This document shows, piece after piece, positions 1,949 to 53,942 of a DNA stretch of 64,000 nucleotides; position 1 is the stretch's first letter; each line of letters begins with the position of its first letter. The notes under the pieces were generated by a model, which saw nothing but the letters and a program-made list of their open reading frames with translations, was not told the DNA's origin and made no database searches. The DNA is from Candidatus Omnitrophica bacterium UBA6215. Lineage in GTDB: Bacteria; Omnitrophota; Gorgyraeia; Pluralincolimonadales; Pluralincolimonadaceae. The translations under genes were made by a program, and so were the position numbers. The stretch spans positions 23,174 through 87,173 of the forward strand of contig DISH01000004.1 of the NCBI GenBank assembly GCA_002421665.1, read 5' to 3'.

Positions 1949-3013
1949 ATGAAATACAAAATGGATCTCGTAAGCCCCGCCGTTTTCATCGGCAAACAGG
2001 GCAAGGGAGTCATAAGTTTCGGTTCCGGGCAGCCGGACCTGCCTCCGCCCAAAGAGGCCATACAGGGAATAGATATCCGTAAGGACCTTAGGTACGGCCT
2101 GATACAGGGAGAATACCCGCTCAGAGAGGCGCTGTCCAATGAATACCCGAATTCCACCGCGGATAATTTTGTCATAACCAACGGCGCCTCCGAAGCGCTT
2201 GACCTGATCTTCCGCGCGTGGGGCAAGGGGAAAGTGCTGCTCCCGAAGCCGTATTATTATTCTTACCTGCCGCTTGTGGAAATGGCGGGCATGGAGCCGG
2301 TATTCACCGATCTTGTAGAAGGCAGGATAGATATAGATGACTTCAAGAAGAAGATAAAAGGCTGCAAGGCGGTCCTGATAAATTCCCCGTCGAACCCTAC
2401 GGGCCGTGTCGAATTGATAGAGACCCTGAAAGAGATAGAGAAGATAACCGCTAAACTCGGCGTGTATGTCATCTCCGACGAAGTCTATAAGGACCTGATA
2501 TACGAGAGGGAGAACTACCATATAAAGGGCGGGCACGTCATTACGGTAAATTCCTTCTCTAAGACCTATGCCATGTGCGGGGTAAGGGTAGGTTACCTTT
2601 GGAGTTCCGACAAAAAAGTGGTCGATGATGTCATCGAGCTCAAGACCCACACCTCGATGAACACGAACCTCGTCGGGCAGGATATGGCCCTCAGGGCGAT
2701 GGCCGTCCCCAAAAAATACGTGATAGACCAGAAGGAGATATGGCGCAAGCGGAGGGACAGGATATACAACGGTTTCTGCGAGCTCGGTTTTGACCTGTGG
2801 CGGCCCGAGGGGGCTTTTTACATATTCCCGAAATGCAGGAACGCTAGGGAATTCCTCGCCACGCTGTTCCTGAAATATAAGGTGATATTCTATCTGGGGG
2901 AGTGGTTCGGCGCACCCGACCGTATCAGGCTCAGCTATGCCCTTGATGAGGCCCAGATAGACAAGGGGCTGGAGTGTATAAAGGCGGCGATGAAGAAGGT
3001 ACGGTGCCTCTAA
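1949..3013 (+). CDS. class I/II pyridoxal-phosphate-dependent aminotransferase
   Basis: NSPSNPTG and SFSKTYAMCGVRVGY (PLP-lysine) motifs typical of aspartate/aromatic aminotransferases. Confidence 0.85.
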   Translation: MKYKMDLVSPAVFIGKQGKGVISFGSGQPDLPPPKEAIQGIDIRKDLRYGLIQGEYPLREALSNEYPNSTADNFVITNGASEALDLIFRAWGKGKVLLPKPYYYSYLPLVEMAGMEPVFTDLVEGRIDIDDFKKKIKGCKAVLINSPSNPTGRVELIETLKEIEKITAKLGVYVISDEVYKDLIYERENYHIKGGHVITVNSFSKTYAMCGVRVGYLWSSDKKVVDDVIELKTHTSMNTNLVGQDMALRAMAVPKKYVIDQKEIWRKRRDRIYNGFCELGFDLWRPEGAFYIFPKCRNAREFLATLFLKYKVIFYLGEWFGAPDRIRLSYALDEAQIDKGLECIKAAMKKVRCL

Positions 3014-3029
3014 GCGGCATAAAGATAGA

Positions 3030-4370
3030 ATGACACTATTAGTCAAGGACAGGGTATTCCCCACCATATTGCGCATGGCCGTCCCGATGCTTGCAGGGAC
3101 GTTCGCGATAAACGCATATAACCTCGCGGATACCTGGTTTGTATCCCGGCTCGGTACGGATGCTCTCGCCGCTATTTCGTTCACTTTCCCCGTAGTCATG
3201 ATGATAGGGTTCATAATGCGCGGGTTAAGCACGGGTGCCATGACGGTAGTCGCACACGCGCTGGGAAGCGGCAAACAACGGACCGCCGCGCGCATAACGA
3301 CCCACGCGGTTTTCCTATCATCTGCGGTATCTTTAGTACTTACCGTCGCCGGTATCCTTACTATAAAGCCGGTCTTTTCGCGGCTCGGGGCTTCGGGGGA
3401 AGTCCTCGCGCTCGCGCAGCAGTACATGGGTATATGGTACTGCGGGCTGGTAATACGCGTAGTGCAGGTTATGTTCGCCGATATAATCATAGGGACGGGA
3501 AATACCAAAGGCGTCAGCCTTTTGATGGTCTCCGGCACGGTGATGAACTGCATACTGGATCCGGTCATGATCTTTGGCCTGCTCGGTTTCCCCAAGATGG
3601 GTATGTACGGCGCCGCCCTGGCCACGGTAATTTCAGAGACATTCGTCCTTCTATTCGCGCTGTACCTTGTCCATAAGAAACACTGCCTTATATTGTTCTC
3701 TTCACATACCCGCCTTAGGATAGCGGCGTCATGGCGCAGGATATTGCATATCGGGATACCATCTACGTTAAGCTCCGTCCTTACGCCGATATCGGCGGCT
3801 ATCGTAATAAAGATAGTTTCCGGGTTCGGCCAGGCCGCGGTAGCCGCGGTCGGCGTCGCCGGAAGGATGGAGATGTTCGCTTTCATGATACCGATGACTG
3901 TAGGCATGTCTCTGGTGCCGTTCATAGCCCAGAATTACGGAGCGGGCCGGTTTGACCGGATACAGGCAGTCCGTAAAGGCGCCATGCTGTTCGCATTGGT
4001 CTTCGGTTTTGCCGCAGCTTTCGTATTCCTTTTCATCGCGCGGCCGCTCGGCACGCTCTTCTCGTCGGATGCCGAGGTTGTGAATATCCTGGTAAGGTAT
4101 ATATACATAACGTGTTTCGGCTACGGGTTCCTCGAAGTGCACCGTTATGCCACTTTCTGTATGACCGGAATACATAAGCCGGTCTCTTCGGCCATACTCA
4201 CCGGTATAAGGGTCATAGTATTGATGGTCCCGCTGGCCTATTTCGGCTCGAGGTTTTTCGGCGTCACGGGTGTCTTTTTGGGCAGGTTATTTACCGATAT
4301 AACCTCGGCCGTTATCGGGATCATATGGACGGGTAAAGTCCTCTCTGGGGCTTCAGGCGTTCCCAGATAA
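3030..4370 (+). CDS. MATE family efflux transporter
   Basis: About 12 TM segments. N-terminal RMAVPMLAGTFAINAYNLADTWFVSRLG is typical of MATE/NorM. Confidence 0.85.
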   Translation: MTLLVKDRVFPTILRMAVPMLAGTFAINAYNLADTWFVSRLGTDALAAISFTFPVVMMIGFIMRGLSTGAMTVVAHALGSGKQRTAARITTHAVFLSSAVSLVLTVAGILTIKPVFSRLGASGEVLALAQQYMGIWYCGLVIRVVQVMFADIIIGTGNTKGVSLLMVSGTVMNCILDPVMIFGLLGFPKMGMYGAALATVISETFVLLFALYLVHKKHCLILFSSHTRLRIAASWRRILHIGIPSTLSSVLTPISAAIVIKIVSGFGQAAVAAVGVAGRMEMFAFMIPMTVGMSLVPFIAQNYGAGRFDRIQAVRKGAMLFALVFGFAAAFVFLFIARPLGTLFSSDAEVVNILVRYIYITCFGYGFLEVHRYATFCMTGIHKPVSSAILTGIRVIVLMVPLAYFGSRFFGVTGVFLGRLFTDITSAVIGIIWTGKVLSGASGVPR

Positions 4371-4405
4371 TACTTGCCTCTTCCCGTCCGCGGCTATATA
4401 ATCAT

Positions 4406-5098
4406 TTGCATATGGATAGAAGGTTTGTTGTTATAAAAGAGCATTTCGAGAAGGCCGCGAAAGATTTTGATAAGCATTTTATCAGGTTCGCGCCCGGATA
4501 CGAAGAGGCCATAGAGGCCCTCGTCTCGGCCATACCTTTTTCCGGCGGGGGCAGGATAAACGTCGCCGACCTCGGATGCGGCACAGGAAACATAGCCGCG
4601 GCAGTCCTTAAAAAATACCCTAATGCCCGCATCAGCTGCATTGACCTGAGCGAGAGGATGATATCCCTTGCGAAAGCCAAGCTCTGCGGTTTCAAAAATG
4701 TTGAATTCCATGCGGGTGATCTGCGCGGCTATAAATTCACGCGCAAATATGATGCCGTGGTCTCCTCGCTTGTCCTGCATCACTTCGAAGGTAAAGATAA
4801 GGAACTACTCTATAAGAAGGTATACGGTTGTCTAAAAAAAGGCGGTGTTTTCTGCAACTCTGACATTACTCGGGGTTCGACGGCGTATTTGCAGGATATG
4901 TATATCGAAAAGTGGGTAGAGTTCCTGCACAAAGGTTGTTCCCGGGCAGAAATAAAGAATACTCTTAAGAACCACAAAAGGGAAGACCGTCCCGCCCTCC
5001 TCATGGATGAACTTAAGGCCCTCGCCAGGGCCGGGTTCAGGGATATAGACGTGGTTTACAAGCGTTATTATTTTTCCGTCTACGGCGGGGTTAAATGA
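4406..5098 (+). CDS. class I SAM-dependent methyltransferase
   Basis: VADLGCGTGN motif I; about 230 aa Rossmann methyltransferase. Confidence 0.8.
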   Translation: MHMDRRFVVIKEHFEKAAKDFDKHFIRFAPGYEEAIEALVSAIPFSGGGRINVADLGCGTGNIAAAVLKKYPNARISCIDLSERMISLAKAKLCGFKNVEFHAGDLRGYKFTRKYDAVVSSLVLHHFEGKDKELLYKKVYGCLKKGGVFCNSDITRGSTAYLQDMYIEKWVEFLHKGCSRAEIKNTLKNHKREDRPALLMDELKALARAGFRDIDVVYKRYYFSVYGGVK

Positions 5099-5180
5099 AC
5101 CGTTTTTCGGAATCCAGGGGTGTTACGGTAATAAATTATTGTGTTTTAAGGGTTGTTTGTTGATCGGAAAGGAGCCTGCT

Positions 5181-6770
5181 ATGCAGCGTTCGGAAGAGGA
5201 AAAGAGTTATGAAGCCCTGAGCCCGTTCGAATTAAAGAACAAGCTGATCAGTATGGCCGAGACGAACCGCGAAAGGATCATGCTGAATGCCGGAAGGGGC
5301 AATCCCAACTGGGTCGCGATAGCGCCCAGGGAGGGGTTCCTGCAATTCGGAATGTTTGCGCTATCCGAGTCCCAGCGTTCGCCCCACAGGCCCGGGTTGG
5401 GGACGGTCGCGCAGAAAGAAGGGATATCAGAAAGGTTCAGGAGTTTCCTGGCCGGCAAGAAAGGGGAGCCGGGCATAGAGTTCCTGTCCGGCGCATTTGA
5501 ATATGTCACCGGGGATATGAAGATAAACGGCGACGAATTCCTGAACGAGATGGTCGATGCCACCCTCGGCGACCACTATCCTACGCCCGACAGGATGCTT
5601 GAGATCTGCGAAAGAATAGTACACAGGTACCTTGAACAGGAGATGCTGGGTTTTGCGCCTGTCGGAAGGTTCGACCTGTTTGCCACCGAAGGCGGTACCG
5701 CAGCGATGGATTATATCTTCACGAGCCTGTCCGAGAATAAGCTCATACATAAAGGCGATAAGATAGCGCTGGGTACGCCGATATTCACTCCCTATCTTGA
5801 GATACCCAGGCTTAACGATTATGAACTTGTCGAATTGGAGATAAAACAGGACGAGAATTCGGACTGGCAATATCCCGATTCGGAGATCGAAAAGCTGGCC
5901 GATCCTTCCGTCAAGGCATTCTTCCTGGTAAACCCCTCTAACCCGACATCCGTAAGCGTCCAAAGACGATCGCTCGATAAGGTAGCGGAACTGGTAGATA
6001 CGCGCCGGAAAGACCTTATAATACTTACCGACGATGTATACGGTACTTTTGTTGACGGTTTCAGGTCCCTGGCCGCGGTTGCCCCGCGCAATACGATCCT
6101 GGTCTATTCTTATTCCAAATATTTCGGAGCCACCGGGTGGCGTCTCGGTGTAATAGGCATACATGAGGACAGCGTCTTTGATAAGCGGATAGCCGCACTT
6201 CCGGCCTATGACAGGGAAGAACTGCATGCCCGCTATTGTACCGTCGAGCTCGATCCCGACAACATGAAGCTTATCGACCGTATGGTAGCGGATTCGCGTT
6301 CCGTGGCCTTGCACCATACCGCGGGGCTCTCTACGCCGCAGCAGGTGATGATGGTGATGTTCTCCCTGCAATGCCTCATGGACAAGGAAGGCAACTACAA
6401 GAAGTTGACGCAGGATATCGTCAAGAAACGCTTCGAGGCCCTTTATTCCGCTCTTGGGGTAAAGGCCCCGGACGACGAATATGACGCGCGTTATTATACG
6501 ACTATCGATATACCCGAACTGGCCGGAGTCAGATACGGGGCGGATTTCGCGGATTATATGACCGGGAATTTCGAGCCTATAGATTTTGTCTGGCGCTTGG
6601 CGGAAGAGAAATCTATAGTGCTCATGGACGGCGGAGGTTTTGATGCCCCCAATATGTCTGTAAGGGTCTCGCTGGCCAATCTCGATGACAGCGACTATAC
6701 GCAGATAGGCAAAGGAATAAGCGAATTGCTAGAGGACTATTATATGACCTGGAAAGGGTCCAAAAAGTAG
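5181..6770 (+). CDS. asdA: aspartate 4-decarboxylase (aspartate aminotransferase family)
   Basis: About 529 aa. LSPFELKNKLI N-terminus, NPSNPTS and YSYSKYFGATGWRLG motifs match AsdA/AspD. AAGGAG SD precedes ATG 5181 (ORF track starts at in-frame 5139). Confidence 0.8.
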   Translation: MQRSEEEKSYEALSPFELKNKLISMAETNRERIMLNAGRGNPNWVAIAPREGFLQFGMFALSESQRSPHRPGLGTVAQKEGISERFRSFLAGKKGEPGIEFLSGAFEYVTGDMKINGDEFLNEMVDATLGDHYPTPDRMLEICERIVHRYLEQEMLGFAPVGRFDLFATEGGTAAMDYIFTSLSENKLIHKGDKIALGTPIFTPYLEIPRLNDYELVELEIKQDENSDWQYPDSEIEKLADPSVKAFFLVNPSNPTSVSVQRRSLDKVAELVDTRRKDLIILTDDVYGTFVDGFRSLAAVAPRNTILVYSYSKYFGATGWRLGVIGIHEDSVFDKRIAALPAYDREELHARYCTVELDPDNMKLIDRMVADSRSVALHHTAGLSTPQQVMMVMFSLQCLMDKEGNYKKLTQDIVKKRFEALYSALGVKAPDDEYDARYYTTIDIPELAGVRYGADFADYMTGNFEPIDFVWRLAEEKSIVLMDGGGFDAPNMSVRVSLANLDDSDYTQIGKGISELLEDYYMTWKGSKK

Positions 6771-6779
6771 GAGGCCTGT

Positions 6780-8468
6780 ATGTGGCATGATATCCTGGAG
6801 ATTATGCGCAACAACCCCGAGTTGGTGCTTTTCCTGGCGCTTGGCATAGGATATTTCGCCGGAAAGAGGGTCAAGATCTTCGGCTTCACCCTGGGCTCGA
6901 CCGCTTCGGTGCTTCTTGCCGCGATATTGGTCGGTCAGGTCGGTATAGCCATACCGCCGCTTCTTAAGAACATAAGTTTCGGCCTGTTCATATTTACCGT
7001 CGGGTACAAGGTCGGCCCGCAGTTCTTCGGTTCTTTGAAGAGGGACGGCCTGAATTATCTCTGGCTGGCCGTAGCGGTGGCATTGACGTCGTTGGTAACG
7101 GCTTACGCCATAGGAAAGATCGCCCATCTTGACAAGGGGACCACTGTGGGCATGTTCGCCGGTTCCATGACGACTTCGGCGGCCCTGGGTACGGGCAGCG
7201 ACGCCGTAAAACATCTTGACCTTAAACCGGAGGAGAAGAGCACCCTCGATTCGAATATGGCGGTGGCATACGCCATCACATATATATTCGGCACCGCCGG
7301 CACTATAATACTCATAAAACTCTCGCCCGCGATATTCAGGATAGACCTTAAGTCCGAGGTCAGGAAGCTCGAGGAACAGATGGGCGGCTCCCAGTCTGAT
7401 GATGAAGAGAACCAGGGGACGTTCTCCTGGACGCAGCGGCTTGATATGAGAGCTTTCAGGGCCCTTAACGGCGCGGTAATAGGCAAGAGTATCTCCGGGA
7501 TAGAGGAACTTTTGCCCGACCGGGTCGCTATCGATAAGATCAAAAGGGCCGACCGGGTGATCGAGACCGCCCCGGAGACGGTCGTCTCACGCGATGACAT
7601 ATTATTGGTGTTGGGACCGACCTCCCGTATGGTGGACGCCGGAGAACTCATCGGCCCGGAGATAGACCGCGCCGCCGTTACCGATATAACCGGCGAGGTC
7701 ATTGATGTGTGCGTGCTTAACAGGAATGTGGCGGGAAAAACGCTCGGCGAGCTTGGGAAATTGAAACTTGCCCACGGGTTATTCCTTCGAAAGATCACGA
7801 GACAGGGCCACGATATCCCGATAATGCCCGGGACGACTGTGCATAAATGCGATATACTCCAGGTAACAGGCGCCAAGGAAGACGTAGAGAAGGCCATATC
7901 TTTCCTGGGATATCCCGAGAGGCCCACTACCGTTACGGACCTTGTCACCGTAGCCGTCGGTTGTATCGCGGGTACTCTGATAGGCCTTATAGTCGTTCCT
8001 GTCTTCGGCATTCCGATTACGCTTGGCGCGGGCGGCGGCATACTTGTCTCCGGTCTCCTGTGCGGCTGGCTTAGGTCTATGCACCCTACTTTCGGACAGA
8101 TACCCGGCGGCGCGCAATGGATACTGGGAGACCTCGGGTTGAACCTTTTTGTGGCTTGTGTCGGTGTGACCGCCGGTCCTCAAGCTTTCCACGCTATAAA
8201 GACTACGGGCCTGTCGGTCTTCATAGGCGGGATGATCGTAACCACCTTGCCTGTTGTTGTTGTCATGCTGCTTGGCCTGAAAGTCCTCAAGGTTAACCCT
8301 ATATTATTGTTGGGCGCTGCGACGGGTTCGCACAACTGCACTGCTTCGTTGAACGTGGTCATAGAGGCTTCCGGGAGCCCGTTGGCGGTTTTGGGCTACG
8401 CTGCGCCTTACGCGTTCGCGAACGTCCTTTTGACCGTCTGGGGCACTATTATCGTAAACCTTATGTGA
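6780..8468 (+). CDS. aspT: aspartate:alanine antiporter (AAEx/AspT-YidE-YbjL family)
   Basis: 562 aa. Duplicated membrane domains separated by a cytoplasmic TrkA_C-like region. Immediately downstream of asdA, as in described aspD-aspT operons. Confidence 0.75.
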   Translation: MWHDILEIMRNNPELVLFLALGIGYFAGKRVKIFGFTLGSTASVLLAAILVGQVGIAIPPLLKNISFGLFIFTVGYKVGPQFFGSLKRDGLNYLWLAVAVALTSLVTAYAIGKIAHLDKGTTVGMFAGSMTTSAALGTGSDAVKHLDLKPEEKSTLDSNMAVAYAITYIFGTAGTIILIKLSPAIFRIDLKSEVRKLEEQMGGSQSDDEENQGTFSWTQRLDMRAFRALNGAVIGKSISGIEELLPDRVAIDKIKRADRVIETAPETVVSRDDILLVLGPTSRMVDAGELIGPEIDRAAVTDITGEVIDVCVLNRNVAGKTLGELGKLKLAHGLFLRKITRQGHDIPIMPGTTVHKCDILQVTGAKEDVEKAISFLGYPERPTTVTDLVTVAVGCIAGTLIGLIVVPVFGIPITLGAGGGILVSGLLCGWLRSMHPTFGQIPGGAQWILGDLGLNLFVACVGVTAGPQAFHAIKTTGLSVFIGGMIVTTLPVVVVMLLGLKVLKVNPILLLGAATGSHNCTASLNVVIEASGSPLAVLGYAAPYAFANVLLTVWGTIIVNLM

Positions 8469-8489
8469 ACCATTATCAAAGGAGGAAGT

Positions 8490-9539
8490 ATGAAAGCGGT
8501 CAAGTGCGCGATATGCTGCATGGTATTTTTAGCGTTATCAGTCCCGGTATCCTTTGCGGAACTGCCGACCGTGGTCATCGTTACTACCGGCGGGACGATA
8601 GCCGAAAAGACGGATGCCAAGACCGGCGGCGCAGTTCCGGCCGTTTCCGGCAAGGACCTTATTGCCGCAGTCCCCGGACTGGATAAGATCGCCCGGATCG
8701 AGGTGGTTAACCTGTGCAACATAGACAGCTCCCAGATGACGCCCGAAATGTGGGCCCAGCTTTCTAAGACCGTGGATGCGCATCTTGCCGGACCCAAAGT
8801 AAAAGGAGCTGTCGTTACCCATGGCACGGATACCATGGCCGAAGGGGCGTATTTCCTGGAACTTACGCTCAAGAGCGGTAAGCCCGTGGTTTTTGTCGGA
8901 GCGATGCGCGATGCTTCAGAAGTTTCACCCGACGGCCCGGCCAATATACTCAATGCCGTTACACAGGCATGTTCCGAAGAGGCGCGGGACTGGGGTGTAA
9001 CCGTTACGCTTAATGAGTATATAAATTCCGCCAGGGATGTCGTAAAGACCAATTCGACCAATGTCCAGACCTTTGACTCGGGTGAAAAGGGTTATCTCGG
9101 GTATATAGCCATGGGCAGGGTCATCCGTTATAACAGCGCCCCGCCCGTCCGGAAATTGCCTATTCCGGATAAATTGCCGGATGTCGCGTTTTTGAGCACG
9201 TATGCGGGCGATGACGGCTCATTCGTCCGTTTTGCGGCGGACCATGGCGCGAAAGGTATTGTAGTCGAAGCCGTAGGCGCGGGTAACGTGAATGCCGGTG
9301 TATATGAAGCCGTAAAATACGCTATATCTAAAGGTATACCTGTAGTAATAACTACAAGGGTATATCACAGCGGGGTATGGCCGATGTACGCAGACCAGGG
9401 CGGAGGTGAGACCCTGGAAAAGGACGGCGCTATATTGGCCGGCGACCTGCCCGGACCCAAGGCAAGGCTCCTGCTTATGCTAGCCATAGCGAAGGAAAAA
9501 GGCGATACGTCGAAGATAAGGGGATATTTTACGAGGTGA
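8490..9539 (+). CDS. ansB: L-asparaginase type II (periplasmic, signal peptide)
   Basis: Signal peptide. VVIVTTGGTIAEK and VVTHGTDTMAE asparaginase motifs. Confidence 0.85.
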   Translation: MKAVKCAICCMVFLALSVPVSFAELPTVVIVTTGGTIAEKTDAKTGGAVPAVSGKDLIAAVPGLDKIARIEVVNLCNIDSSQMTPEMWAQLSKTVDAHLAGPKVKGAVVTHGTDTMAEGAYFLELTLKSGKPVVFVGAMRDASEVSPDGPANILNAVTQACSEEARDWGVTVTLNEYINSARDVVKTNSTNVQTFDSGEKGYLGYIAMGRVIRYNSAPPVRKLPIPDKLPDVAFLSTYAGDDGSFVRFAADHGAKGIVVEAVGAGNVNAGVYEAVKYAISKGIPVVITTRVYHSGVWPMYADQGGGETLEKDGAILAGDLPGPKARLLLMLAIAKEKGDTSKIRGYFTR

Positions 9540-10726
9540 TACGGTGCAGGGCCGCGACGGCCTGCATTCTTTTGTCTTTGATATCTTTGCCGGGCGTATT
9601 ATTCGCAGGGGATTGGTCAGGCCTGCGGGATTCCCTTCGTGACGCAGGCGTAGATATCTCATTGAATTATACCACCGATATAAGCGGCAATCCTGCGGGC
9701 GGCCTTGACCGGACCGTCGTGTATTCAGGGTTCCTTTCCCTTTCGACCGTGCTGGACCTTGAAAAGATATTATCCATAGACGGGTTATCGCTTAAGATCG
9801 GCAACTATCTCGCGAGCGGTCGCGATATATCCGTTTCCATCGGTTCTTACTACAGCCCGCAGCAAGTCTATACATCCGGCGATTATTATTTCGGCGTGCT
9901 GGACCTTTCCAAGTCGATGTTCGACGATAAGCTGGACCTCGAGGCAGGACGCCTGTTTGCCGGGGATGTGTTCGCGGTCTCTCCGATGTTCCAGTATTAC
10001 CTCACAAGTGCCGTGGACGGAAGGCTGGCCGCCATACCGTCGGACATATTTTTTCCTCATTACCGTTCCACCGCCTGGGGCGCCAGGGCGACTTTCCGGC
10101 CGGAGACGGATTGGAGTTTTATTACCGGCATCTATAATGCCGATCCGAGCGTTGCGGACCCCGGGAAGAACGGTTTGGATTTCAGTTTCAGGACGGATAA
10201 AGGTTACCTTGCCGTGGGGCAGGTCAATTACAGGAAAGGGCAGGAAAAAGAAAGCCCCGAAGCCCCGGGAGGGATATCTTTCGGCGGATATTATGAATCA
10301 AGCAGTTTTGCGTACCTCTCGGACCCGGATGTCCGGGTCCGCGGCAATTACGGGTTTTATGCTACGGCGGATAAGATGATATACAGGGCGGATTTGCACA
10401 GAGGGCTGAGCGTATGGGGCGCAGGCATGTATGCTCCGCGGGATGAGATAAACCCGCAGACCTATCAGGCCGCCGCGGGCCTTATCTACCAGGGATTGCC
10501 GCCCGGCCGCAGCAATGATGTTACGGCTTTTTGTTTTGTCCTCGGCCATTTCAGCAATGATATGGAAGGACGCTCCGAAGAGATGATAATAGAACTCGAC
10601 CACAGGTTCCAGTTGACCCCGTGGTGTTATGTTACACCGGACTTGCAATATATCATAAAGCCGAACGGGATGGCCGACATAGACAATGCCCTGGTCCTGG
10701 GTTTCGAGGCAAGTTTTGATTTTTAA
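9536..10726 (+). CDS. OprB-family (carbohydrate-selective-like) outer-membrane porin
   Basis: GTG start overlapping the ansB stop. Signal peptide. C-terminal LQYIIKPNG...FEASFDF beta-barrel signature. Paralogous to 52593-53942. Confidence 0.65.
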   Translation: MIRCRAATACILLSLISLPGVLFAGDWSGLRDSLRDAGVDISLNYTTDISGNPAGGLDRTVVYSGFLSLSTVLDLEKILSIDGLSLKIGNYLASGRDISVSIGSYYSPQQVYTSGDYYFGVLDLSKSMFDDKLDLEAGRLFAGDVFAVSPMFQYYLTSAVDGRLAAIPSDIFFPHYRSTAWGARATFRPETDWSFITGIYNADPSVADPGKNGLDFSFRTDKGYLAVGQVNYRKGQEKESPEAPGGISFGGYYESSSFAYLSDPDVRVRGNYGFYATADKMIYRADLHRGLSVWGAGMYAPRDEINPQTYQAAAGLIYQGLPPGRSNDVTAFCFVLGHFSNDMEGRSEEMIIELDHRFQLTPWCYVTPDLQYIIKPNGMADIDNALVLGFEASFDF

Positions 10727-10739
10727 GCCGGTCCGGTAA

Positions 10740-12029
10740 TTATGTTTGTTCCATCGTGTGCACGTCGAAACTCAATCTCCGCAACTGCCTGGCAAACCCT
10801 GCCGTAAGACCGACTATCAATAACGTTACTATCCCTCCCGCGGCTACGCATGGGATGGTTCCTATCCATGCGGCTACCATACCGCTCTCGAAAGCCCCCA
10901 GTTCATTCGAGGCGTATATGAATATGCCGCTTGCCGAGGCGATACGTCCGCGCAATTCCTCCGGGGAGAGCAGCCTCAGGACGGAGCGCCTTATCACCAC
11001 GCTCACCCCGTCGAATACGCCGCTGAAGAACAACGCGGCCATCGAGAGCAGGAAATTCTTCGAAAAGGCGAATACGATTATCGATACCCCGAAGCCGGCT
11101 ATGGCCAGGAGCAGGTTACGCCCGGCTCGCCCTATCGGCGGATGCCGGGTGGCCATCAGGGTTATTATCAAGGCCCCTAAAGACGGAGCGGCGTTCAACA
11201 GGCCGAGCCCCCTGGCGCCGACATGCAATATGTCATTGGCGTATATCGGCAAAAGTATTATTGCCCCGCCGAAGAATACGGAGAAGAGGTCGAGTGCCAT
11301 GGATGCCCAGAGAGGTTGTGTCTTGAAAAGAAAACCCCACCCGACGGCAATGCCTTTTAATATAGGGTCTTTCCTTTGCGGAATGTGCTGGTGCTTTGGG
11401 GGTATCGCAAGAGTAAAGATCCATGAGAGTATGAATCCGGCGGTTATGATGATATAAGAACCCGGGGCGCCCCAGGCGGCGAATATAAAACCTATTGCCG
11501 CCGGCCCGATGACCGAGCAGCTTAACCATGTACTGCTTATCCATGAAGAGGCGTTAACGGTCAGGCGTTTCGGGACAACCTGTGCCTCGAAGGCGGTATT
11601 CGCGGGGTCCGCGAACCCGCGGGCAACTCCCGCCGCGAATATCATGGCATAGAGGCCGGGCAGCGAACGCACGCTTGCCTGCCAGGAGATCGCGGCAAGC
11701 AGTACCGTGCACACGCATGAGACCGCGCGGGTCACGAGTATGATCCTGCGCCGGTCAACATGGTCCGCGACGTAACCCCCGAAAGGAGCTATGGATATGG
11801 CTGGTATGGCCTCAACGAGACCGAGCCATCCGAGGGAAAGGGCGCTGTGCGTTATCTGGTATATCTGGAAACCTATCACTACCGCGAGGGCCCGGCTCGC
11901 GAGGGTGAAAAACCCTACGGAACCGATGAAGAGGCGTATATCGGCTACCTTGAGGGCATCCGTGAAATGATGTTGTTTATTATGGATGGACATTGCTAAT
12001 AAGATATACTTTCCGGAGGTATTTTGCAA
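10740..12029 (-). CDS. MFS transporter
   Basis: 429 aa, 12 TM. Divergent from the TetR gene. Confidence 0.75.
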   Translation of the reverse strand: MQNTSGKYILLAMSIHNKQHHFTDALKVADIRLFIGSVGFFTLASRALAVVIGFQIYQITHSALSLGWLGLVEAIPAISIAPFGGYVADHVDRRRIILVTRAVSCVCTVLLAAISWQASVRSLPGLYAMIFAAGVARGFADPANTAFEAQVVPKRLTVNASSWISSTWLSCSVIGPAAIGFIFAAWGAPGSYIIITAGFILSWIFTLAIPPKHQHIPQRKDPILKGIAVGWGFLFKTQPLWASMALDLFSVFFGGAIILLPIYANDILHVGARGLGLLNAAPSLGALIITLMATRHPPIGRAGRNLLLAIAGFGVSIIVFAFSKNFLLSMAALFFSGVFDGVSVVIRRSVLRLLSPEELRGRIASASGIFIYASNELGAFESGMVAAWIGTIPCVAAGGIVTLLIVGLTAGFARQLRRLSFDVHTMEQT

Positions 12030-12074
12030 GCGGTAACGCTTCCCCGGAGGCTTGCGGATAAAATAAATCAGGCC

Positions 12075-12117
12075 TTGACAAAAATATAAAGTATGCTATA
12101 ATTATGTAGTTAACTAC
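12075..12117 (+). promoter_or_regulatory. sigma70-like promoter (TTGACA-16-TATAAT) followed by perfect 12-bp palindrome GTAGTTAACTAC (candidate TetR operator)
   Basis: TTGACA at 12075-12080, TATAAT at 12097-12102, palindrome at 12106-12117. Located in the divergent MFS/TetR intergenic region. Confidence 0.5.
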
Positions 12118-12134
12118 AAAAAAGGCCGGTGATC

Positions 12135-12794
12135 ATGAGAGGAAAAGAATACCCGTTACGGGCGATCAAGCACGCGAAGACAAGGCTCGCGATAATGAGG
12201 GCGTTCATGGAACGGTTGAAAAGAGACCGTTTCGAAAGCATTTCCGTAGCGAAGGTCTGCGAAGACGCTGAAGTCGCACAGGGCACGTTCTTCAACTATT
12301 TCCCGGAAAAGATAGATGTCCTGGCTTATTACCTGCGGTTGACTATGGCGAAGATGATCTGGACCGCGGAAAGAAAGTCTGTCGCGGGCAAATACCTTGC
12401 GAAGATAGAGGCTGTCTTTTCCCAGGTATCCAAAGAGTGGGAGAACAGCAACCTTTCCTGCCAGATACTTTCCGTCCTGCTCGGGCAGACGGAAAGGCCC
12501 AAGTGGGTCGAGATATCCGGTGTGGAGAAGAGAATGGCTTTCCCCCGCTGCGAAGGCATAGAGGATACCGCCGATGAATGTTTTGGCGGATGGTTAAAGA
12601 AATGCATATCATCGGCGATAAAGAGCGGGGAATTGCCCCCGAAAGCCGATCAGTCGGATATCCTGGTATCATTGACGACGCTCATGTTCGGGACATTCCT
12701 GTCTGTCCGGTTCCATGGCTGCGGACGCCGCGACTATCATTATAAACGTCAACTCCATATTCTGTGGAATAGTATGGGAGTGAAAGGATCATAA
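12135..12794 (+). CDS. TetR/AcrR family transcriptional regulator
   Basis: N-terminal HTH (ISVAKVCEDAEVAQGTFFNYF). Alternative GTG start at 12129. Confidence 0.8.
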   Translation: MRGKEYPLRAIKHAKTRLAIMRAFMERLKRDRFESISVAKVCEDAEVAQGTFFNYFPEKIDVLAYYLRLTMAKMIWTAERKSVAGKYLAKIEAVFSQVSKEWENSNLSCQILSVLLGQTERPKWVEISGVEKRMAFPRCEGIEDTADECFGGWLKKCISSAIKSGELPPKADQSDILVSLTTLMFGTFLSVRFHGCGRRDYHYKRQLHILWNSMGVKGS

Positions 12795-32199: not shown

Positions 32200-32302
32200 A
32201 AAGGGTCCGGGAACAGCAACGTTCCCGGAGGGATTTGATGGTCGGGCCGCCATCTCTGTTGTAATATAGGGAAGGCGTTTTTTATTTTAGGGAGGTTTTA
32301 TC

Positions 32303-33358
32303 ATGTCTGAGAAGATCTTAACGAGCCTTAACGGATTATCCGTATATATCCTGCCCGTAGGAGTATGTCTGGTTACGGTCATTCTGGGTTATATTGTCAG
32401 GAGCGTGATATTCAGGAGATTCCTGCACTGGGCGAGCAAAACCAAGACCGATATAGACGACATAATAATAATTTCGACAAGGACACCGTTCTTGGTATGG
32501 TGCCTTATGCTTGGCATATATTTCGGCCTGGAAGTCTCCCATATACCGAAGGAATGGGTAAGGGTATGCGGCAAGGCCCTTTTCGTTTTGGGTTCCCTCT
32601 CGGTCATGATGGTCCTCTCTAATATCTCCGCCAGATTCATAGCGGCGCGGTCCGCCAAGTTCGAATCGGCGCTCCCGGTAACTTCTCTTACCCAGAATGT
32701 AAGCCGTATAGTGATATTCGGCATAGGTCTGCTCCTTATACTCAATACGCTGGGCATAGCGATAACCCCGATACTGGCTACTTTGGGAGTTGGAGGTCTT
32801 GCCGTGGCCCTGGCGCTCCAGGATTCGTTATCCAACCTGTTTGCAGGGTTCCACATAGTTGCTTCCCGGCAGATCAAGATAGGCGACTACGTGAGGCTCG
32901 AAAGCGGGGAAGAAGGCTATGTTTCCGATATAACCTGGAGAAGCACAAAGATAAGGATGCTCGCGAACAACGTGATCCTTGTCCCGAATGCCAAACTGAC
33001 GCAGGTTATCACTACCAATTATTACCTTCCCGAAAAGGAGATGGCCGTGCTCGTGAACCTTGGGGTCCATTACGGCAGCGACCTTAAGAAAGTCGAAAGG
33101 GTTACCTGCGAAGTAGCCAGGGAAGTAATGAAAGAGGTGACCGGAGGCGTAGAAGGGTTCGAGCCGTTCATCCGTTACCATACATTCGGTGATTTCAGCA
33201 TAAATTTCAGTGTAATAATGAGGGCCAGAGAGTTCGTGGACCAGTACCTTATAAAACATGAGTTTGTTAAGAGACTCCACGAGAGGTATAATAAGGAAGG
33301 TATAGTGATACCATATCCGATAAGGGCGATCAATAACGAACAGGAAAGGACCCGGTAG
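32303..33358 (+). CDS. MscS-family mechanosensitive channel
   Basis: TM domain plus the conserved IKIGDYVRL...VILVPNAKL beta-domain. Confidence 0.85.
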   Translation: MSEKILTSLNGLSVYILPVGVCLVTVILGYIVRSVIFRRFLHWASKTKTDIDDIIIISTRTPFLVWCLMLGIYFGLEVSHIPKEWVRVCGKALFVLGSLSVMMVLSNISARFIAARSAKFESALPVTSLTQNVSRIVIFGIGLLLILNTLGIAITPILATLGVGGLAVALALQDSLSNLFAGFHIVASRQIKIGDYVRLESGEEGYVSDITWRSTKIRMLANNVILVPNAKLTQVITTNYYLPEKEMAVLVNLGVHYGSDLKKVERVTCEVAREVMKEVTGGVEGFEPFIRYHTFGDFSINFSVIMRAREFVDQYLIKHEFVKRLHERYNKEGIVIPYPIRAINNEQERTR

Positions 33359-33359
33359 C

Positions 33360-35594
33360 ATGAGACGTATCCTGCTATTCGTTTTGCCTATACTCATAAT
33401 CGCCGCGACCATATTTACCGTCTTCGGCATCTTCCAGGTCAACTTCGAGGAAAGCAAGCTGATGGATGACCTGCAAAGGAAAGCCAGGACCGTTGCAGAA
33501 AGCACCGAGCTCTCGGCCCGGTATATCCTGCTGAACAACGACCTCAGGTCAGCTAACCGTCTTACCGAGAGTTTCCAGAAGAGGGAAAGGCTGCAAGGTT
33601 GTGTCATATACGACAAGGCCGGTAATATCGTCTCAATAACCTCAAGGATATCGGATTGGGGCCACAAGGACAAGCCTTACATAAAGGAGACCCTGGAGAG
33701 CGGGGTCCCCAGGGCCGCTATGGAGAAGTTCAGGGAATATTCCGTTTACAGCTACGTCCTGCCTATACTCGACGATGATAAGAACGTCCTTGGGATCGTA
33801 GAGGTAATATATGACACTTCTTACGTCTTCTCGATCCTGACCGAGTTATGGAAGCACATAAGCACCGCCCTGATAACCCTCGTGGTATCGATAGCCCTTA
33901 TCGCCCTTTTGCTCCAAAGGCAGATATTCATATTGCCTATCCTGCAGTTGACGGAGTGGTTCCACAGTTTCCAGAAGGGCGAGACCGATGCGCAGCATCC
34001 CATAATAAAAGAGAAAGGCGCTTTCGGTAAACTTGCAAGTGAAGTAGAGCAGATAGCCCTGAGCCTGAGGATCGCGCGCAAGACCATCTCCGATAAAGCG
34101 CAGGTACGCCTGCAGAAAGAAGAACTCTGGACCGAGGACAAACTCAAGAACCTCGTTCTTGCCAAGCTTGGAGAGAATGCCCTCTACGTGGTATCGAACA
34201 GGGAGCCGTATATGCATGTCATCGAGGATGCTACCGGCAAGGCTAAATGCATCCGTCCGGCAAGCGGTGTTGTTACGGCGATAGATCCTATAATGCGCGC
34301 CTGCGGCGGGACATGGATAGCCCATGGTAGCGGTAACGCCGACAGGAAGTTCGTCAATTCCAAGAATAAGCTTCCGGTCCCTCCCGAGGACAACCGTTAT
34401 ATCCTGAAAAGGGTATGGCTGTCCAAGGAAGAGGAGCAGGGATACTATTACGGTTTTTCCAACGAGGGGCTTTGGCCGCTTTGTCATATAACGCATACGC
34501 GCCCGGTCTTCAGGGACGAGGATTGGGAGATGTATAAGAAGGTCAACCAGAAGTTTGCGGATGCCGTCCTGGAAGAACTGCCGTCCAAGAACCCGTTCGT
34601 GTTCATACAGGATTACCATTTTACCCTGTTGCCCAAGATGATAAAAGAGAAACAGCCGAATGCCACCATTGCGCTCTTTTGGCATATACCGTGGCCCAAC
34701 CCAGAGATATTCGCCACGTGCCCTTACCAAAAGCAGATACTCGACGGCATGTTGGGGTGCGACCTGATAGGGTTCCATGTCCAGTTCCACTGCAACAACT
34801 TCCTGGATACGGCGAACAGGTTCCTAGAATCGAGAGTGGATACCGAGAGGTTCGCCATAGTCCGCGCAGGGAAAGAGACCCTTGTCCGGGCGTTCCCGAT
34901 AAGCGTTGATAACTTCATGGAAGAGAAGGCGAAACAGGATGTAGCGGATGCGAAGAGCCTGATAGAAGAATTCGAGCTCAAGGACAAGATAGTAGCGGTT
35001 GGCGTAGAGAGGATAGATTACACAAAGGGTCTCGTCGAGAGGATAACCGCCGTAGACCGTTTCCTCGAGAAGTATCCCCAGTATAAACGTAAATTCGTAA
35101 TGGTACAGCTCGCGGCGCCCAGCAGGACCCATATCAAGCGCTACCATGACTTGATGGCAGAGATAGACGAGGCTGTCGAAAAGGTCAACTGGAAGCATTC
35201 GGACGGCAGCTGGAAGCCTATAATATACCTGAAGAAGCATTTTTCGCCCGAAGAGATAAAGCCTTATTTCGCAATGGCGGATATATGCATGGTCAGCTCG
35301 CTTCACGACGGGATGAACCTTGTAGCAAAGGAATATGTCATATCGAACAAGGAAATGAACGGTGTATTGATATTGAGCCGTTTCACGGGCGCAGCAAAGG
35401 AGTTGGCCGACGCGGTCCAGGTAAACCCGTATTCCATCGAAGAGTTCTCGGACGCGATAAAGACGGCTATAGAGATGCCGGCCGAAGAGAAGAGGAAACG
35501 CATGGAGAACATGCGCAATATAGTAAAAGAGAACAATATATATAAGTGGGCCGGCAGCATAATGACCGAGCTAACCTCTTTGAAGAAGGAATGA
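33360..35594 (+). CDS. otsA: membrane sensor (TM-Cache-like-TM-HAMP-like) fused to alpha,alpha-trehalose-phosphate synthase (GT20, OtsA)
   Basis: C-terminal about 470 aa is GT20 with hallmark ALFWHIPWPNPEIF. N-terminal about 270 aa has two TM helices flanking an extracytoplasmic domain and an amphipathic HAMP-like linker. Confidence 0.8.
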   Translation: MRRILLFVLPILIIAATIFTVFGIFQVNFEESKLMDDLQRKARTVAESTELSARYILLNNDLRSANRLTESFQKRERLQGCVIYDKAGNIVSITSRISDWGHKDKPYIKETLESGVPRAAMEKFREYSVYSYVLPILDDDKNVLGIVEVIYDTSYVFSILTELWKHISTALITLVVSIALIALLLQRQIFILPILQLTEWFHSFQKGETDAQHPIIKEKGAFGKLASEVEQIALSLRIARKTISDKAQVRLQKEELWTEDKLKNLVLAKLGENALYVVSNREPYMHVIEDATGKAKCIRPASGVVTAIDPIMRACGGTWIAHGSGNADRKFVNSKNKLPVPPEDNRYILKRVWLSKEEEQGYYYGFSNEGLWPLCHITHTRPVFRDEDWEMYKKVNQKFADAVLEELPSKNPFVFIQDYHFTLLPKMIKEKQPNATIALFWHIPWPNPEIFATCPYQKQILDGMLGCDLIGFHVQFHCNNFLDTANRFLESRVDTERFAIVRAGKETLVRAFPISVDNFMEEKAKQDVADAKSLIEEFELKDKIVAVGVERIDYTKGLVERITAVDRFLEKYPQYKRKFVMVQLAAPSRTHIKRYHDLMAEIDEAVEKVNWKHSDGSWKPIIYLKKHFSPEEIKPYFAMADICMVSSLHDGMNLVAKEYVISNKEMNGVLILSRFTGAAKELADAVQVNPYSIEEFSDAIKTAIEMPAEEKRKRMENMRNIVKENNIYKWAGSIMTELTSLKKE

Positions 35595-52508: not shown

Positions 52509-52592
52509 AGATAGCCCTTGACACCGGATAACGGTTATATTATAAATAGAAATGTTTTCTATTTATAACCTGTGGGACAGGAGGTACGTACC

Positions 52593-53942
52593 ATGCGTTG
52601 TCTGCCGTTATTGCTATTGTCTGCCGCTCTATGCGCGCCCAGCCCTTTATACGCCGACGAGGCTGCCGTCATGGACAGGCTGAAGGCCCTTGAGCAGAAG
52701 ATCGACGTCCTGGAGAAGAAGCTTTCAGACCAGGAAAAATGCATGAAAGACCAGGAGTCGTGCATAGCCGACCAGCAGAAGAAGATCTCGGAATACGAGG
52801 CGAAATTCAAGGACATGGACCAGCAGCTCCACAGGCAGACCGGCCCGGAGACCCTCGTTACGGACGGGCTTAGGATAGGCGTGGGGGCTACAATGGTCGT
52901 CCAGGGTACTGATAACACGAATGCCACCGAAGAGAAGAAGAATTCAAAGGCAGACGCATCTTTCTCCGAAGACATAACAATATTGAAAGAGTTCGAAGGC
53001 CTCAACAGCCAGGCCTTTATCCATCTTGAGGCGGGCCAGGGCGCCGGGCTGACCAACGACCTTTCTCTCTACAGTAACGTGGATTACGATGCCAATGACG
53101 AGGAAAATGTCACGGTATCGGAAATATGGTATGAGCAGGGCCTCTTTTCGGACAAGGCCCTCCTGACTTTCGGAAAACTTGACCCGACGGCCTATTTCGA
53201 TAACAACGAAGCGGCCAACGACGAGACCACCCAGTTCCTGAGCGACATATTCCGCAATAATCCCGCTATCGAGTTCCCGGATAACACCCTCGCCATAAGG
53301 GCGGCGGCCATTCCGGTCGATTGGCTCGAGCTGAATTACGGCGTATTCGACGGCGACAGCGACTGGGACGATATAGGCGATAATCTTTTCAATGTCGGCC
53401 AGGTTACCTTCAAGACCGGGTTCTTCGGACTCCCCGGCAATTACAGGTTCTTCGGCTGGTCCAACAAGTCGCGACATACGAAATGGCTTGATCCGGCAAA
53501 GGAGAAGGAAGGGGCCTATGGTTTCGGCTTAAGCTTCGACCAGAAAGCCAACGATATCATAACCCTCTTCGCGCGATACGGGTGGCAGAATCCCAAGGTA
53601 TTCAATCCTGACATAACGGCTTCGGGGGACCTGAATTACTCGCTTAAGCATTCATGGAGCGCGGGCCTTCAGATAGAGGGCAAGCCCTGGAATAGGGAGA
53701 ACGATGTTTTTGCCCTGGCGGTAGGCCAGGCGATACCTTCGAAAGATTACAAGAGCGCTTTCGATACTCCGCTTGAATGCAAGAGCGAAGGCCACCTGGA
53801 AGCGTATTACAGGTTCCACATAAACGACCATCTTTCCGTTAGCCCGGACCTGCAATATATATGGAATCCTTTCGGAAAGGACATAGCCGACGACACGGAA
53901 GGAATATTCGTCTACGGGTTAAGGACGCAGGTGGATTTTTAA
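52593..53942 (+). CDS. OprB-family porin with N-terminal coiled-coil
   Basis: GGAGG SD, signal peptide, coiled-coil (LKALEQKIDVLEKKLSDQEK). C-terminal DLQYIWNPFG...YGLRTQVDF. Paralog of 9536-10726. Confidence 0.65.
   Translation: MRCLPLLLLSAALCAPSPLYADEAAVMDRLKALEQKIDVLEKKLSDQEKCMKDQESCIADQQKKISEYEAKFKDMDQQLHRQTGPETLVTDGLRIGVGATMVVQGTDNTNATEEKKNSKADASFSEDITILKEFEGLNSQAFIHLEAGQGAGLTNDLSLYSNVDYDANDEENVTVSEIWYEQGLFSDKALLTFGKLDPTAYFDNNEAANDETTQFLSDIFRNNPAIEFPDNTLAIRAAAIPVDWLELNYGVFDGDSDWDDIGDNLFNVGQVTFKTGFFGLPGNYRFFGWSNKSRHTKWLDPAKEKEGAYGFGLSFDQKANDIITLFARYGWQNPKVFNPDITASGDLNYSLKHSWSAGLQIEGKPWNRENDVFALAVGQAIPSKDYKSAFDTPLECKSEGHLEAYYRFHINDHLSVSPDLQYIWNPFGKDIADDTEGIFVYGLRTQVDF

Follow-up and report, generated by a model that had tools for sequence, protein, structure and literature searches.

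A conserved four-gene block in Omnitrophota extends the asdA-aspT pair with a putative periplasmic asparaginase and an OprB-family porin

Introduction

Little is known about how the Omnitrophota and the DPANN archaea conserve energy; both groups are abundant, with mostly uncultured and often ultra-small members. In Tetragenococcus halophilus, Asp(1-) is taken up, Ala(0) is exported and the decarboxylation of aspartate consumes a proton, generating a proton-motive force (PMC12462496). A 64,000-nt stretch of the genome of Candidatus Omnitrophica bacterium UBA6215 (assembly GCA_002421665.1, contig DISH01000004.1, positions 23,174 to 87,173; referred to as the window, meaning the whole stretch that was analyzed) carries the two genes for this process, asdA and aspT, followed on the same strand by genes for an asparaginase with a predicted signal peptide (ansB) and an OprB-family porin. 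The locus raises the question of whether the four genes encode one pathway that begins outside the cell. We consider it probable, at roughly 65%, that they do, as a co-transcribed, envelope-spanning pathway that would conserve energy while converting L-asparagine from outside the cell to L-alanine, CO2 and ammonium.

The four genes are closely spaced and conserved in order

The gaps within the block are 9 nt between asdA and aspT, 21 nt between aspT and ansB, and -4 nt between ansB and the porin gene, where the TGA of the asparaginase and the GTG of the porin share the sequence GTGA (Table 1). A Shine-Dalgarno sequence was found before each of asdA, aspT, and ansB. The first-pass annotation of this DNA had listed the four open reading frames (ORFs) in one orientation, and their positions and strand proved correct to the base, as did the overlap of the porin start with the asparaginase stop that it had described. 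The spacing fits one transcript. In a scan of positions 4300-12200, terminator-like sites occurred at chance level (8 matches versus 8.8 expected), with one terminator-like hairpin at 9549-9563.

Table 1 Positions of the four-gene block, related features in the window, and corresponding regions in other loci (L-numbers denote loci found in the scans).
Feature	Sequence	Position	Strand	Length	Description
asdA	window	5181-6770	+	529 aa	predicted pyridoxal-5'-phosphate (PLP)-dependent L-aspartate 4(beta)-decarboxylase; ATG start
aspT	window	6780-8468	+	562 aa	predicted aspartate:alanine antiporter, AAEx family
ansB-like asparaginase	window	8490-9539	+	349 aa	predicted signal peptide 8490-8558
OprB-family porin	window	9536-10726	+	396 aa	GTG start; predicted signal peptide 9536-9607
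Leader/intergenic region before asdA	window	5099-5180	+		ribosome-binding site (RBS) GGAAAGGAG at 5166-5174
Hairpin and U-rich run inside porin ORF start	window	9546-9580	+		from terminator scan and fold; status uncertain
Second OprB paralog	window	52572-53942	+	456 aa	PF04966 106 bits; 24% identity to the cassette porin
asdA leader	L007	3530-3631
asdA leader	L014 (= L095)	1010-1115
asdA leader	L018	6085-6185
asdA leader	L092	1255-1358
Woesearchaeota cluster	L171 (Candidatus Woesearchaeota)	2919-7017			amino acid-polyamine-organocation (APC)-family antiporter, then AsdA, AnsB; overlapping stops
Woesearchaeota cluster	L175 (Candidatus Woesearchaeota)	2003-6089			APC-family antiporter, then AsdA, AnsB; overlapping stops

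An AspT alignment was used to scan species-representative genomes, one per GTDB species. The scan gave 80 loci that span many phyla, which we analyzed by tblastn, taking the four proteins of the window as queries. Of 69 evaluable loci, 66 had asdA directly upstream of aspT; ansB was adjacent in 17 of 65 loci, and where ansB lay on the same strand, a porin gene followed it in 9 of 12. All four genes, in the order asdA-aspT-ansB-porin, were present in L007, L008, L011, L012, L014-L018, L020, L022, and L026, in which AspT was 55-96% and the porin 53-91% identical to the window proteins. A second scan, of metagenomes with a porin alignment (80 loci), yielded the same order in L092-L095, L098, and L115. 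Partial copies were found in L013 and L023, which are cut by contig ends, and in L097, L099, L100, L103, L111, and L120. In total, more than 20 loci within a single Candidatus Omnitrophota clade have this order; the unit proposed in the first-pass annotation is conserved in relatives rather than peculiar to the window.

The flanks of the cassette differ among loci. DNA similarity between the window and L007 and L008 begins at 5157/5180 and ends at 10725/10726. This homology is confined to the block, which marks the block as a conserved unit. The same order in many relatives with unrelated flanks shows that the arrangement is beyond chance. We also grouped neighboring ORFs into families by clustering, taking every ORF of 110 aa or more that lies no farther than about 5-7 kb from aspT (1189 ORFs from 82 loci). 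The recurrent families were AsdA (75 loci), AnsB (20), and the porin (13), and this set held no further recurrent partner besides ORFs that overlap these genes antisense or in another frame. One of the relatives, L011, belongs to the same lineage as the window, with 87% nucleotide identity and flanks in common.

Proteins identical to those of the window also occur in other public data. JGI and Logan metagenome contigs, up to 90 kb long, encode an identical AspT, and an identical asparaginase is in the public record of a Candidatus Omnitrophota metagenome-assembled genome (MAG).

Aspartate is the predicted metabolite that joins the three enzymes

The first gene product scored 774.6 bits against NF006755 (cut-off 321) and 727.3 bits against TIGR03801 (cut-off 435.1), over residues 5-528. 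It matched the solved Pseudomonas and Alcaligenes enzymes end to end (PDB 2zy2, 3fdd, and 2zy4; E about 1e-157; for 2zy2, 7.7e-158 over residues 5-526). The PLP-lysine motif SKYFGATGWRLG aligned with the solved enzymes, as did the C-terminal Arg of the SLANL motif, and the PLP-lysine motif YSKYFGATGWRLG aligned to 2zy2. These matches identify the protein as an aspartate 4-decarboxylase, with the predicted reaction of aspartate to alanine and CO2.

The second gene product scored 573.9 bits against TIGR03802 (cut-off 546.95). It was found to have the family architecture of two Asp-Al_Ex membrane repeats (PF06826, matched in two stretches) around a central TrkA_C-type (PF02080) soluble domain, and it aligned with the solved T. 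halophilus AspT (PDB 8xw5, E = 2.7e-59) except for the linker region. We mapped residues by hand from the phmmer alignment, taking residue roles from the structural work (PMC12462496). Equivalents of T130, S132, Y163, Y167, L431, F434, G439, Y524, F66, and F69 are kept. They include four of the six aspartate-binding residues (T131, S133, Y168, and L454 in the window protein for T130, S132, Y167, and L431) and the gating residues F66, F69, F434, G439, and Y524; the equivalent of Q131 is a threonine. By these matches the protein is an aspartate:alanine antiporter of the AAEx family (Transporter Classification 2.A.81). The score above the equivalog cut-off and the retention of most, though not all, of the aspartate-binding residues tend to speak against another AAEx substrate class, an outcome that the first-pass annotation had named as one that would undo its reading.

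The third gene product carries the Pfam domains PF00710 and PF17763, and its best PDB match was the Campylobacter jejuni asparaginase 3nxk (E = 2e-63). Identical equivalents were found for T12, S58, T89, D90, K162, N248, and E283 of Escherichia coli asparaginase II (EcAII). By inspection, the N-terminus MKAVKCAICCMVFLALSVPVSFA/ELPTV resembles a Sec signal, with a basic n-region, a hydrophobic core, and a cleavage site at SFA/ELPTV, and about 18 of 20 homologs have comparable N-terminal signals. We interpret the protein as a putative periplasmic L-asparaginase that would act on asparagine. The first-pass annotation had called it an asparaginase II with a signal peptide. An asparaginase fold and a signal-like N-terminus agree with this, but the class needs a qualification: the score of 288.1 bits against TIGR00520 lies under the type II cut-off of 314.3 and the score of 234.4 bits against the EcAII model NF008304 lies under its cut-off of 506. 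We therefore filed it as a type-II-like but distinct subfamily, not canonical AnsB. Throughout this subfamily the loop motif KTGGAVPA is conserved, and the longer motif TGGTIAEKxDxKTGGAVPAxSGKDL is near-invariant in hundreds of homologs. This defines a conserved asparaginase subfamily that lacks the canonical loop tyrosine. Asparaginase identity across phyla (Desulfomonilaceae, Thermodesulfovibrionales, Margulisiibacteriota, and Woesearchaeota) is 66-74%, versus 50-55% for the co-located AspT, which suggests horizontal transfer or unusually strong constraint.

The scores under the type II and EcAII cut-offs belong to a group of observations that weigh against asparagine and aspartate as the substrates. 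AspT lies only 27 bits above the TIGR03802 cut-off, a narrow margin, and two of its binding positions, both in HP2, are changed (T496 to N519 and S498 to T521). In the asparaginase, the equivalent of EcAII Y25 is G47, and the flexible loop is without any tyrosine. As Tyr25 is present in only 48% of type II orthologs (PMC9500103), we treat this loss as a caveat and not as a refutation. These points, together with the annotation of AsdA as a bifunctional transaminase/decarboxylase and the presence of succinate and glutamate exporters in the AAEx family (PMC12462496), would fit a system of other substrates, in which the AspT-like protein acts on succinate or glutamate, the AsdA-like protein on transamination, and the asparaginase-like protein on an amide such as glutamine. 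We consider this very improbable. The end-to-end match of AsdA is with solved aspartate beta-decarboxylases, glutaminase-asparaginases were much weaker PDB matches (about 1e-38) than asparaginases (1e-50 to 1e-63), the asdA-aspT pairing is near-universal, and aspartate is the single metabolite that joins all three enzymes.

The linked porins form one clade of OprB paralogs

The fourth gene product scored 174.1 bits against PF04966 (gathering threshold 22.9) and matched Pseudomonas putida OprB (PDB 4gey and 4gf4) with E about 3e-23. Its AlphaFold model (predicted local distance difference test score 71, predicted template modeling (TM) score 0.70) has 16 strands, and the top Foldseek match was again 4GEY (TM 0.80/0.75, E = 1.3e-28, ~23% identity). 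The N-terminus MIRCRAATACILLSLISLPGVLFA/GDW is signal-peptide-like. On the model and these matches, the protein is an OprB-family 16-strand outer-membrane porin.

In the porin-anchored scan, ansB was found upstream of every porin of at least 53% identity with usable upstream DNA (L092-L095, L097-L100, L103, L111, L115, and L120). In L101, the porin gene lies directly after aspT with no ansB between, and none of the porins of 52% identity or less has ansB or aspT upstream. A neighbor-joining tree placed all cassette-linked porins in one clade among the Omnitrophota OprB paralogs. Several residues that the unlinked paralogs lack are fixed in this clade. R163 stands out most clearly, as 17 of 18 unlinked sequences have N at this position; it lies in a low-confidence segment of the model (142-178) that probably folds into the barrel. 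The gene context points to amino acids rather than sugars as the putative substrate of the porin, and the layout of L101 suggests that the porin serves aspartate/alanine traffic as such, not asparagine alone.

A porin that is a bystander would also have to be considered: the functional unit might be asdA-aspT alone, perhaps with ansB, and the OprB protein a general porin that became fixed alongside in one lineage. PF04966 porins are numerous in the Omnitrophota and mostly unlinked, and the porin of L009 falls inside the linked clade yet is unlinked, the sole such member. Characterized OprB porins are carbohydrate-selective, and we know of no OprB member that conducts amino acids. Moreover, the block is not always complete. 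In Omnitrophota-like and other MAGs, many AspT relatives of 50-57% identity are encoded in an asdA-aspT pair that has neither ansB nor the porin beside it (L021, L024, L028-L030, and others), which makes ansB and the porin accessory additions, and Desulfomonilaceae, Ca. Tantalella, and other lineages have asdA-aspT-ansB without the porin. The window porin is itself atypical. In an alignment of Omnitrophota OprB homologs, it and the L011 porin lack two segments, a post-signal S..WL.Q..ATG segment (~25 aa) near the N-terminus and a GEWPEYEGP...DRPKG loop (~34 aa), that are present in nearly all others (most ~450 aa), linked or unlinked.

Set against this, the linkage persists down to 53% porin and 55% AspT identity, the junctions being very short or overlapping at start and stop; the linked porins group as one clade, in which certain clade-specific residues are fixed; and in L101 the porin follows aspT even where ansB is missing. 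The window also encodes a second, distant and unlinked OprB protein (Table 1), whose neighbors are genes for a dCache protein, an OmpA/LysM protein, and a GGDEF-PilZ protein. This suggests that the cassette porin is a specialized paralog and not the only porin of the cell. We regard the bystander explanation as improbable and retain the four-gene pathway.

The asparaginase accompanies AsdA outside the Omnitrophota

We examined the contexts of seven asparaginase homologs (66-72% identity) from outside the Omnitrophota clade. In five of the seven, the asparaginase was found beside AsdA, in varied gene orders: asdA-aspT-ansB in L173 and L177, ansB-asdA-aspT in L174, and, in two Candidatus Woesearchaeota MAGs (L171 and L175), an antiporter gene followed by asdA and ansB. 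The Woesearchaeota AsdA scored 656 bits against TIGR03801. The best NCBIfam matches of the antiporter were GadC and the tyrosine-tyramine antiporter TyrP, and GadC and TyrP are classic precursor/product exchangers of decarboxylation systems. The Woesearchaeota module thus appears to carry a non-homologous GadC/TyrP-like antiporter in place of AspT and to be otherwise equivalent. The ORFs that follow ansB (195-197 aa in L062 and L173, 169 aa in L171) showed no homology to one another or to other loci. The genes stay linked when their order is permuted and when a non-homologous transporter takes the place of AspT, and this strongly supports a joint function of the asparaginase with AsdA and an aspartate/alanine exchanger.

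The remaining two homologs, in L172 and L176, are without AsdA. In L172 (3686-9128), the asparaginase homolog (69%) lies among genes for a pyruvoyl arginine decarboxylase (PvlArgDC) and two phosphatidylserine-decarboxylase-like proteins, with a glutaminase fragment and a Phenol_MetA_deg-type outer-membrane channel also nearby. L172 may be a different amino-acid deamidation/decarboxylation island.

A predicted pathway from external asparagine to alanine

Combining these assignments, asparagine, along with aspartate, would cross the outer membrane through the specialized OprB-family porin. The Sec-exported asparaginase would then hydrolyze asparagine to aspartate and NH3 in the periplasm. AspT would exchange periplasmic Asp(1-) for cytoplasmic Ala(0), an electrogenic step that makes the inside negative, and AsdA would convert aspartate to alanine and CO2, consuming one cytoplasmic proton. 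Alanine would leave through AspT and then through the porin. The predicted net result is a proton-motive force, available for ATP through ATP synthase, and alkalinization on both sides of the inner membrane, so that the yield may be proton-motive force, pH relief, or both. Each turnover is worth about one extruded proton and high flux would be needed, which offers a rationale for a channel gene in the same unit. We infer the substrates of the asparaginase and of the porin, the co-transcription, and the physiological role from sequence and gene context.

The main rival to this reading assigns the same four proteins mainly to acid stress and pH homeostasis, in the manner of the Gad, Adi, and glutaminase-GadC systems: periplasmic release of NH3 and cytoplasmic consumption of protons would buffer pH, and the energy gain would be incidental. 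The chemistry is identical, so all of the context evidence fits this explanation too, and it is compatible with an energy role. The GadC/TyrP-like antiporter of the Woesearchaeota version also favors it, as do the asparaginase neighbors in L172, a set typical of acid-resistance islands. However, no acid-responsive regulator or chaperone is linked to the block in the window, and the module occurs in lineages of neutral anoxic habitats with minimal energy metabolism, in which a source of proton-motive force would be valuable. We judge a primarily acid-protective role to be unlikely, and energy conservation from asparagine to be the better reading.

Comparison with known systems

The asdA-aspT pair of T. 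halophilus, found as a TIGR03801/TIGR03802 pair in many bacteria, has the same two families, adjacent and in the same order. That system consists of two genes in a monoderm, whereas the window adds a secreted asparaginase and an outer-membrane porin, with asparagine as the predicted external substrate. The first-pass annotation had presented the locus as a diderm version of the module. The pair is indeed present here, but its occurrence in diderms is not new in itself, as nearly all AspT loci from a wide range of diderm phyla have it (66 of 69 evaluable loci) and curated models cover it. What appears to be new is the extension of the two-gene energy module by the asparaginase and the porin.

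Periplasmic production of aspartate has precedents. In E. coli and Salmonella, anaerobic AnsB works with Dcu carriers, and C. jejuni secretes AnsB; in these cases periplasmic AnsB feeds aspartate uptake. The aspartate then feeds AspA and fumarate respiration, and the genes are not known to share an operon with the carrier gene. The window is similar in that a predicted Sec-exported type-II-like asparaginase would make periplasmic aspartate for an inner-membrane carrier, and differs in that the carrier is AspT, the sink is decarboxylation, and the enzyme belongs to a separate subfamily (KTGGAVPA, no Tyr25). E. coli YbaS/GadC, GadBC, AdiAC, and TyrDC/TyrP share the common logic of amide hydrolysis and/or decarboxylation with a precursor/product antiporter, in which protons are consumed and ammonia is released. 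The enzyme and transporter families of the window differ from those of the GadC-type systems, the E. coli glutaminase YbaS is cytoplasmic, and to our knowledge no GadC-type decarboxylase/antiporter operon includes a porin gene.

Pseudomonas OprB (4GEY) has the same Pfam family and fold as the cassette porin. It is encoded with glucose ATP-binding cassette (ABC) uptake genes, a precedent for a channel gene beside its inner-membrane transporter. Unlike this carbohydrate-selective protein, the cassette porin is a member of a clade that is specific to the Omnitrophota and tied to amino-acid genes.

In the open-access full-text literature, we found no account of an asdA-aspT unit that includes a porin or a secreted asparaginase, nor of the Woesearchaeota GadC-like/AsdA/AnsB cluster, although such absence is not proof of novelty. 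The first-pass annotation had likewise described the four-gene combination as not a standard arrangement. The only related cases were a Latilactobacillus AnsA/AspT note and the alf-2 cluster of Lactobacillus casei, in which asdA occurs with the glycosylasparaginase gene asnA2 and the released aspartate is the proposed AsdA substrate (PMC6960285). As in the window, alf-2 combines the genes for AsdA and an asparagine-amide hydrolase. The L. casei hydrolase differs in being a cytoplasmic N-terminal-nucleophile-type glycosylasparaginase that acts on N-acetylglucosamine-asparagine, and the cluster has a permease of the major facilitator superfamily (MFS), no AspT, and no outer membrane to cross.

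If the proposed pathway is correct, a compact, portable block would let a cell draw proton-motive force from one common amino acid, with no need for respiration or substrate-level phosphorylation. This gives a concrete bioenergetics hypothesis and a possible growth supplement for cultivation. It would also be a rare case in which the outer-membrane channel, periplasmic enzyme, inner-membrane exchanger, and cytoplasmic enzyme of one pathway are encoded together, and it offers a handle on substrate specificity in the large OprB family, which is poorly characterized outside pseudomonads. A broader and much more tentative proposal, which we think may well be wrong, is that asparagine-driven decarboxylation/antiport is a widespread, unrecognized form of energy conservation in ultra-small, reduced anaerobes, with porin-AnsB-AspT-AsdA in Omnitrophota and a GadC-like antiporter with AsdA and AnsB in DPANN Woesearchaeota. 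In that proposal, the porin clade would be the first amino-acid-specific OprB channel, marked by the clade-specific Arg in a putative constriction loop.

Leader and regulation of the block

In several relatives, the asdA leader has a sigma-70-like promoter, followed by an RBS that precedes a tiny non-conserved ORF, then a GC hairpin of 9-11 bp with U7-8, and last the asdA RBS, which starts less than 10 nt after the U-run. We found this layout in the leaders of L007, L014 (= L095), L018, and L092 (Table 1), and also in those of L026, L017, and L013. The peptides encoded by the tiny ORFs are MEGIKKKYKF, MEEDSSSTI, MDVK, and MESQYVKGSF. The stop codon of the tiny ORF abuts the 5' arm of the hairpin in L007 and L092 and lies 8-10 nt upstream of it in L014 and L018. 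At or near the hairpin, a terminating ribosome could mask it, and the leader of these relatives is likely a translation-coupled transcription attenuator.

Two observations on transcription tell against the operon as proposed for the window. First, the window, like L011, keeps only a 3' remnant of the leader terminator that is intact in relatives. The window leader folds without such a hairpin (z = 0.30). Second, the terminator-like hairpin of the scan lies at the ansB/porin junction, 10 nt into the porin ORF (-15.6 kcal/mol, z = -1.55), and a similar hairpin with T7 is present in L011. It may be a weak attenuator or a 3'-end element, and it might lower porin expression relative to the upstream genes. 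The promoter and terminator scans over 4300-12200 were uninformative, with no promoter-like site on the + strand in the 82-nt gap before asdA, and a search of Rfam gave no match in the window leader and only sub-threshold noise in that of L007.

Upstream of the block, a methyltransferase gene ends at 5098, 82 nt before asdA; downstream, the end of a convergent MFS gene lies 13 nt past the porin stop. The G+C content of the cassette is 0.51-0.56, the same as that of its neighbors, so composition offers no hint of recent transfer. A longer asdA reading frame from a TTG at 5139 was ruled out, as the ATG at 5181 has an RBS and fits both the N-termini of homologs and public gene calls. L011, the closest relative, carries a 722-bp insertion (1352-2073) between the methyltransferase gene and asdA, corresponding to position 5135 of the window; the insertion overlaps an ABC-ATPase-like ORF (1311-2102).

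Other features of the window

An nhaA-I riboswitch was found at 32203-32255 on the + strand (Rfam RF03057, 51.5 bits, gathering threshold 37). Directly 3' of it lies an MscS-family channel gene (32303-33358), and then a GT20 trehalose-phosphate-synthase-like gene with a sensory domain (33360-35594). Positions 1-1800 have a G+C content of 37-42%, versus about 52-56% in the part of the window that was profiled (to 16 kb). The two ORFs in this region (61-807 and 812-1807) had no Pfam match; the latter has a signal-like N-terminus. The region may be recently acquired DNA.

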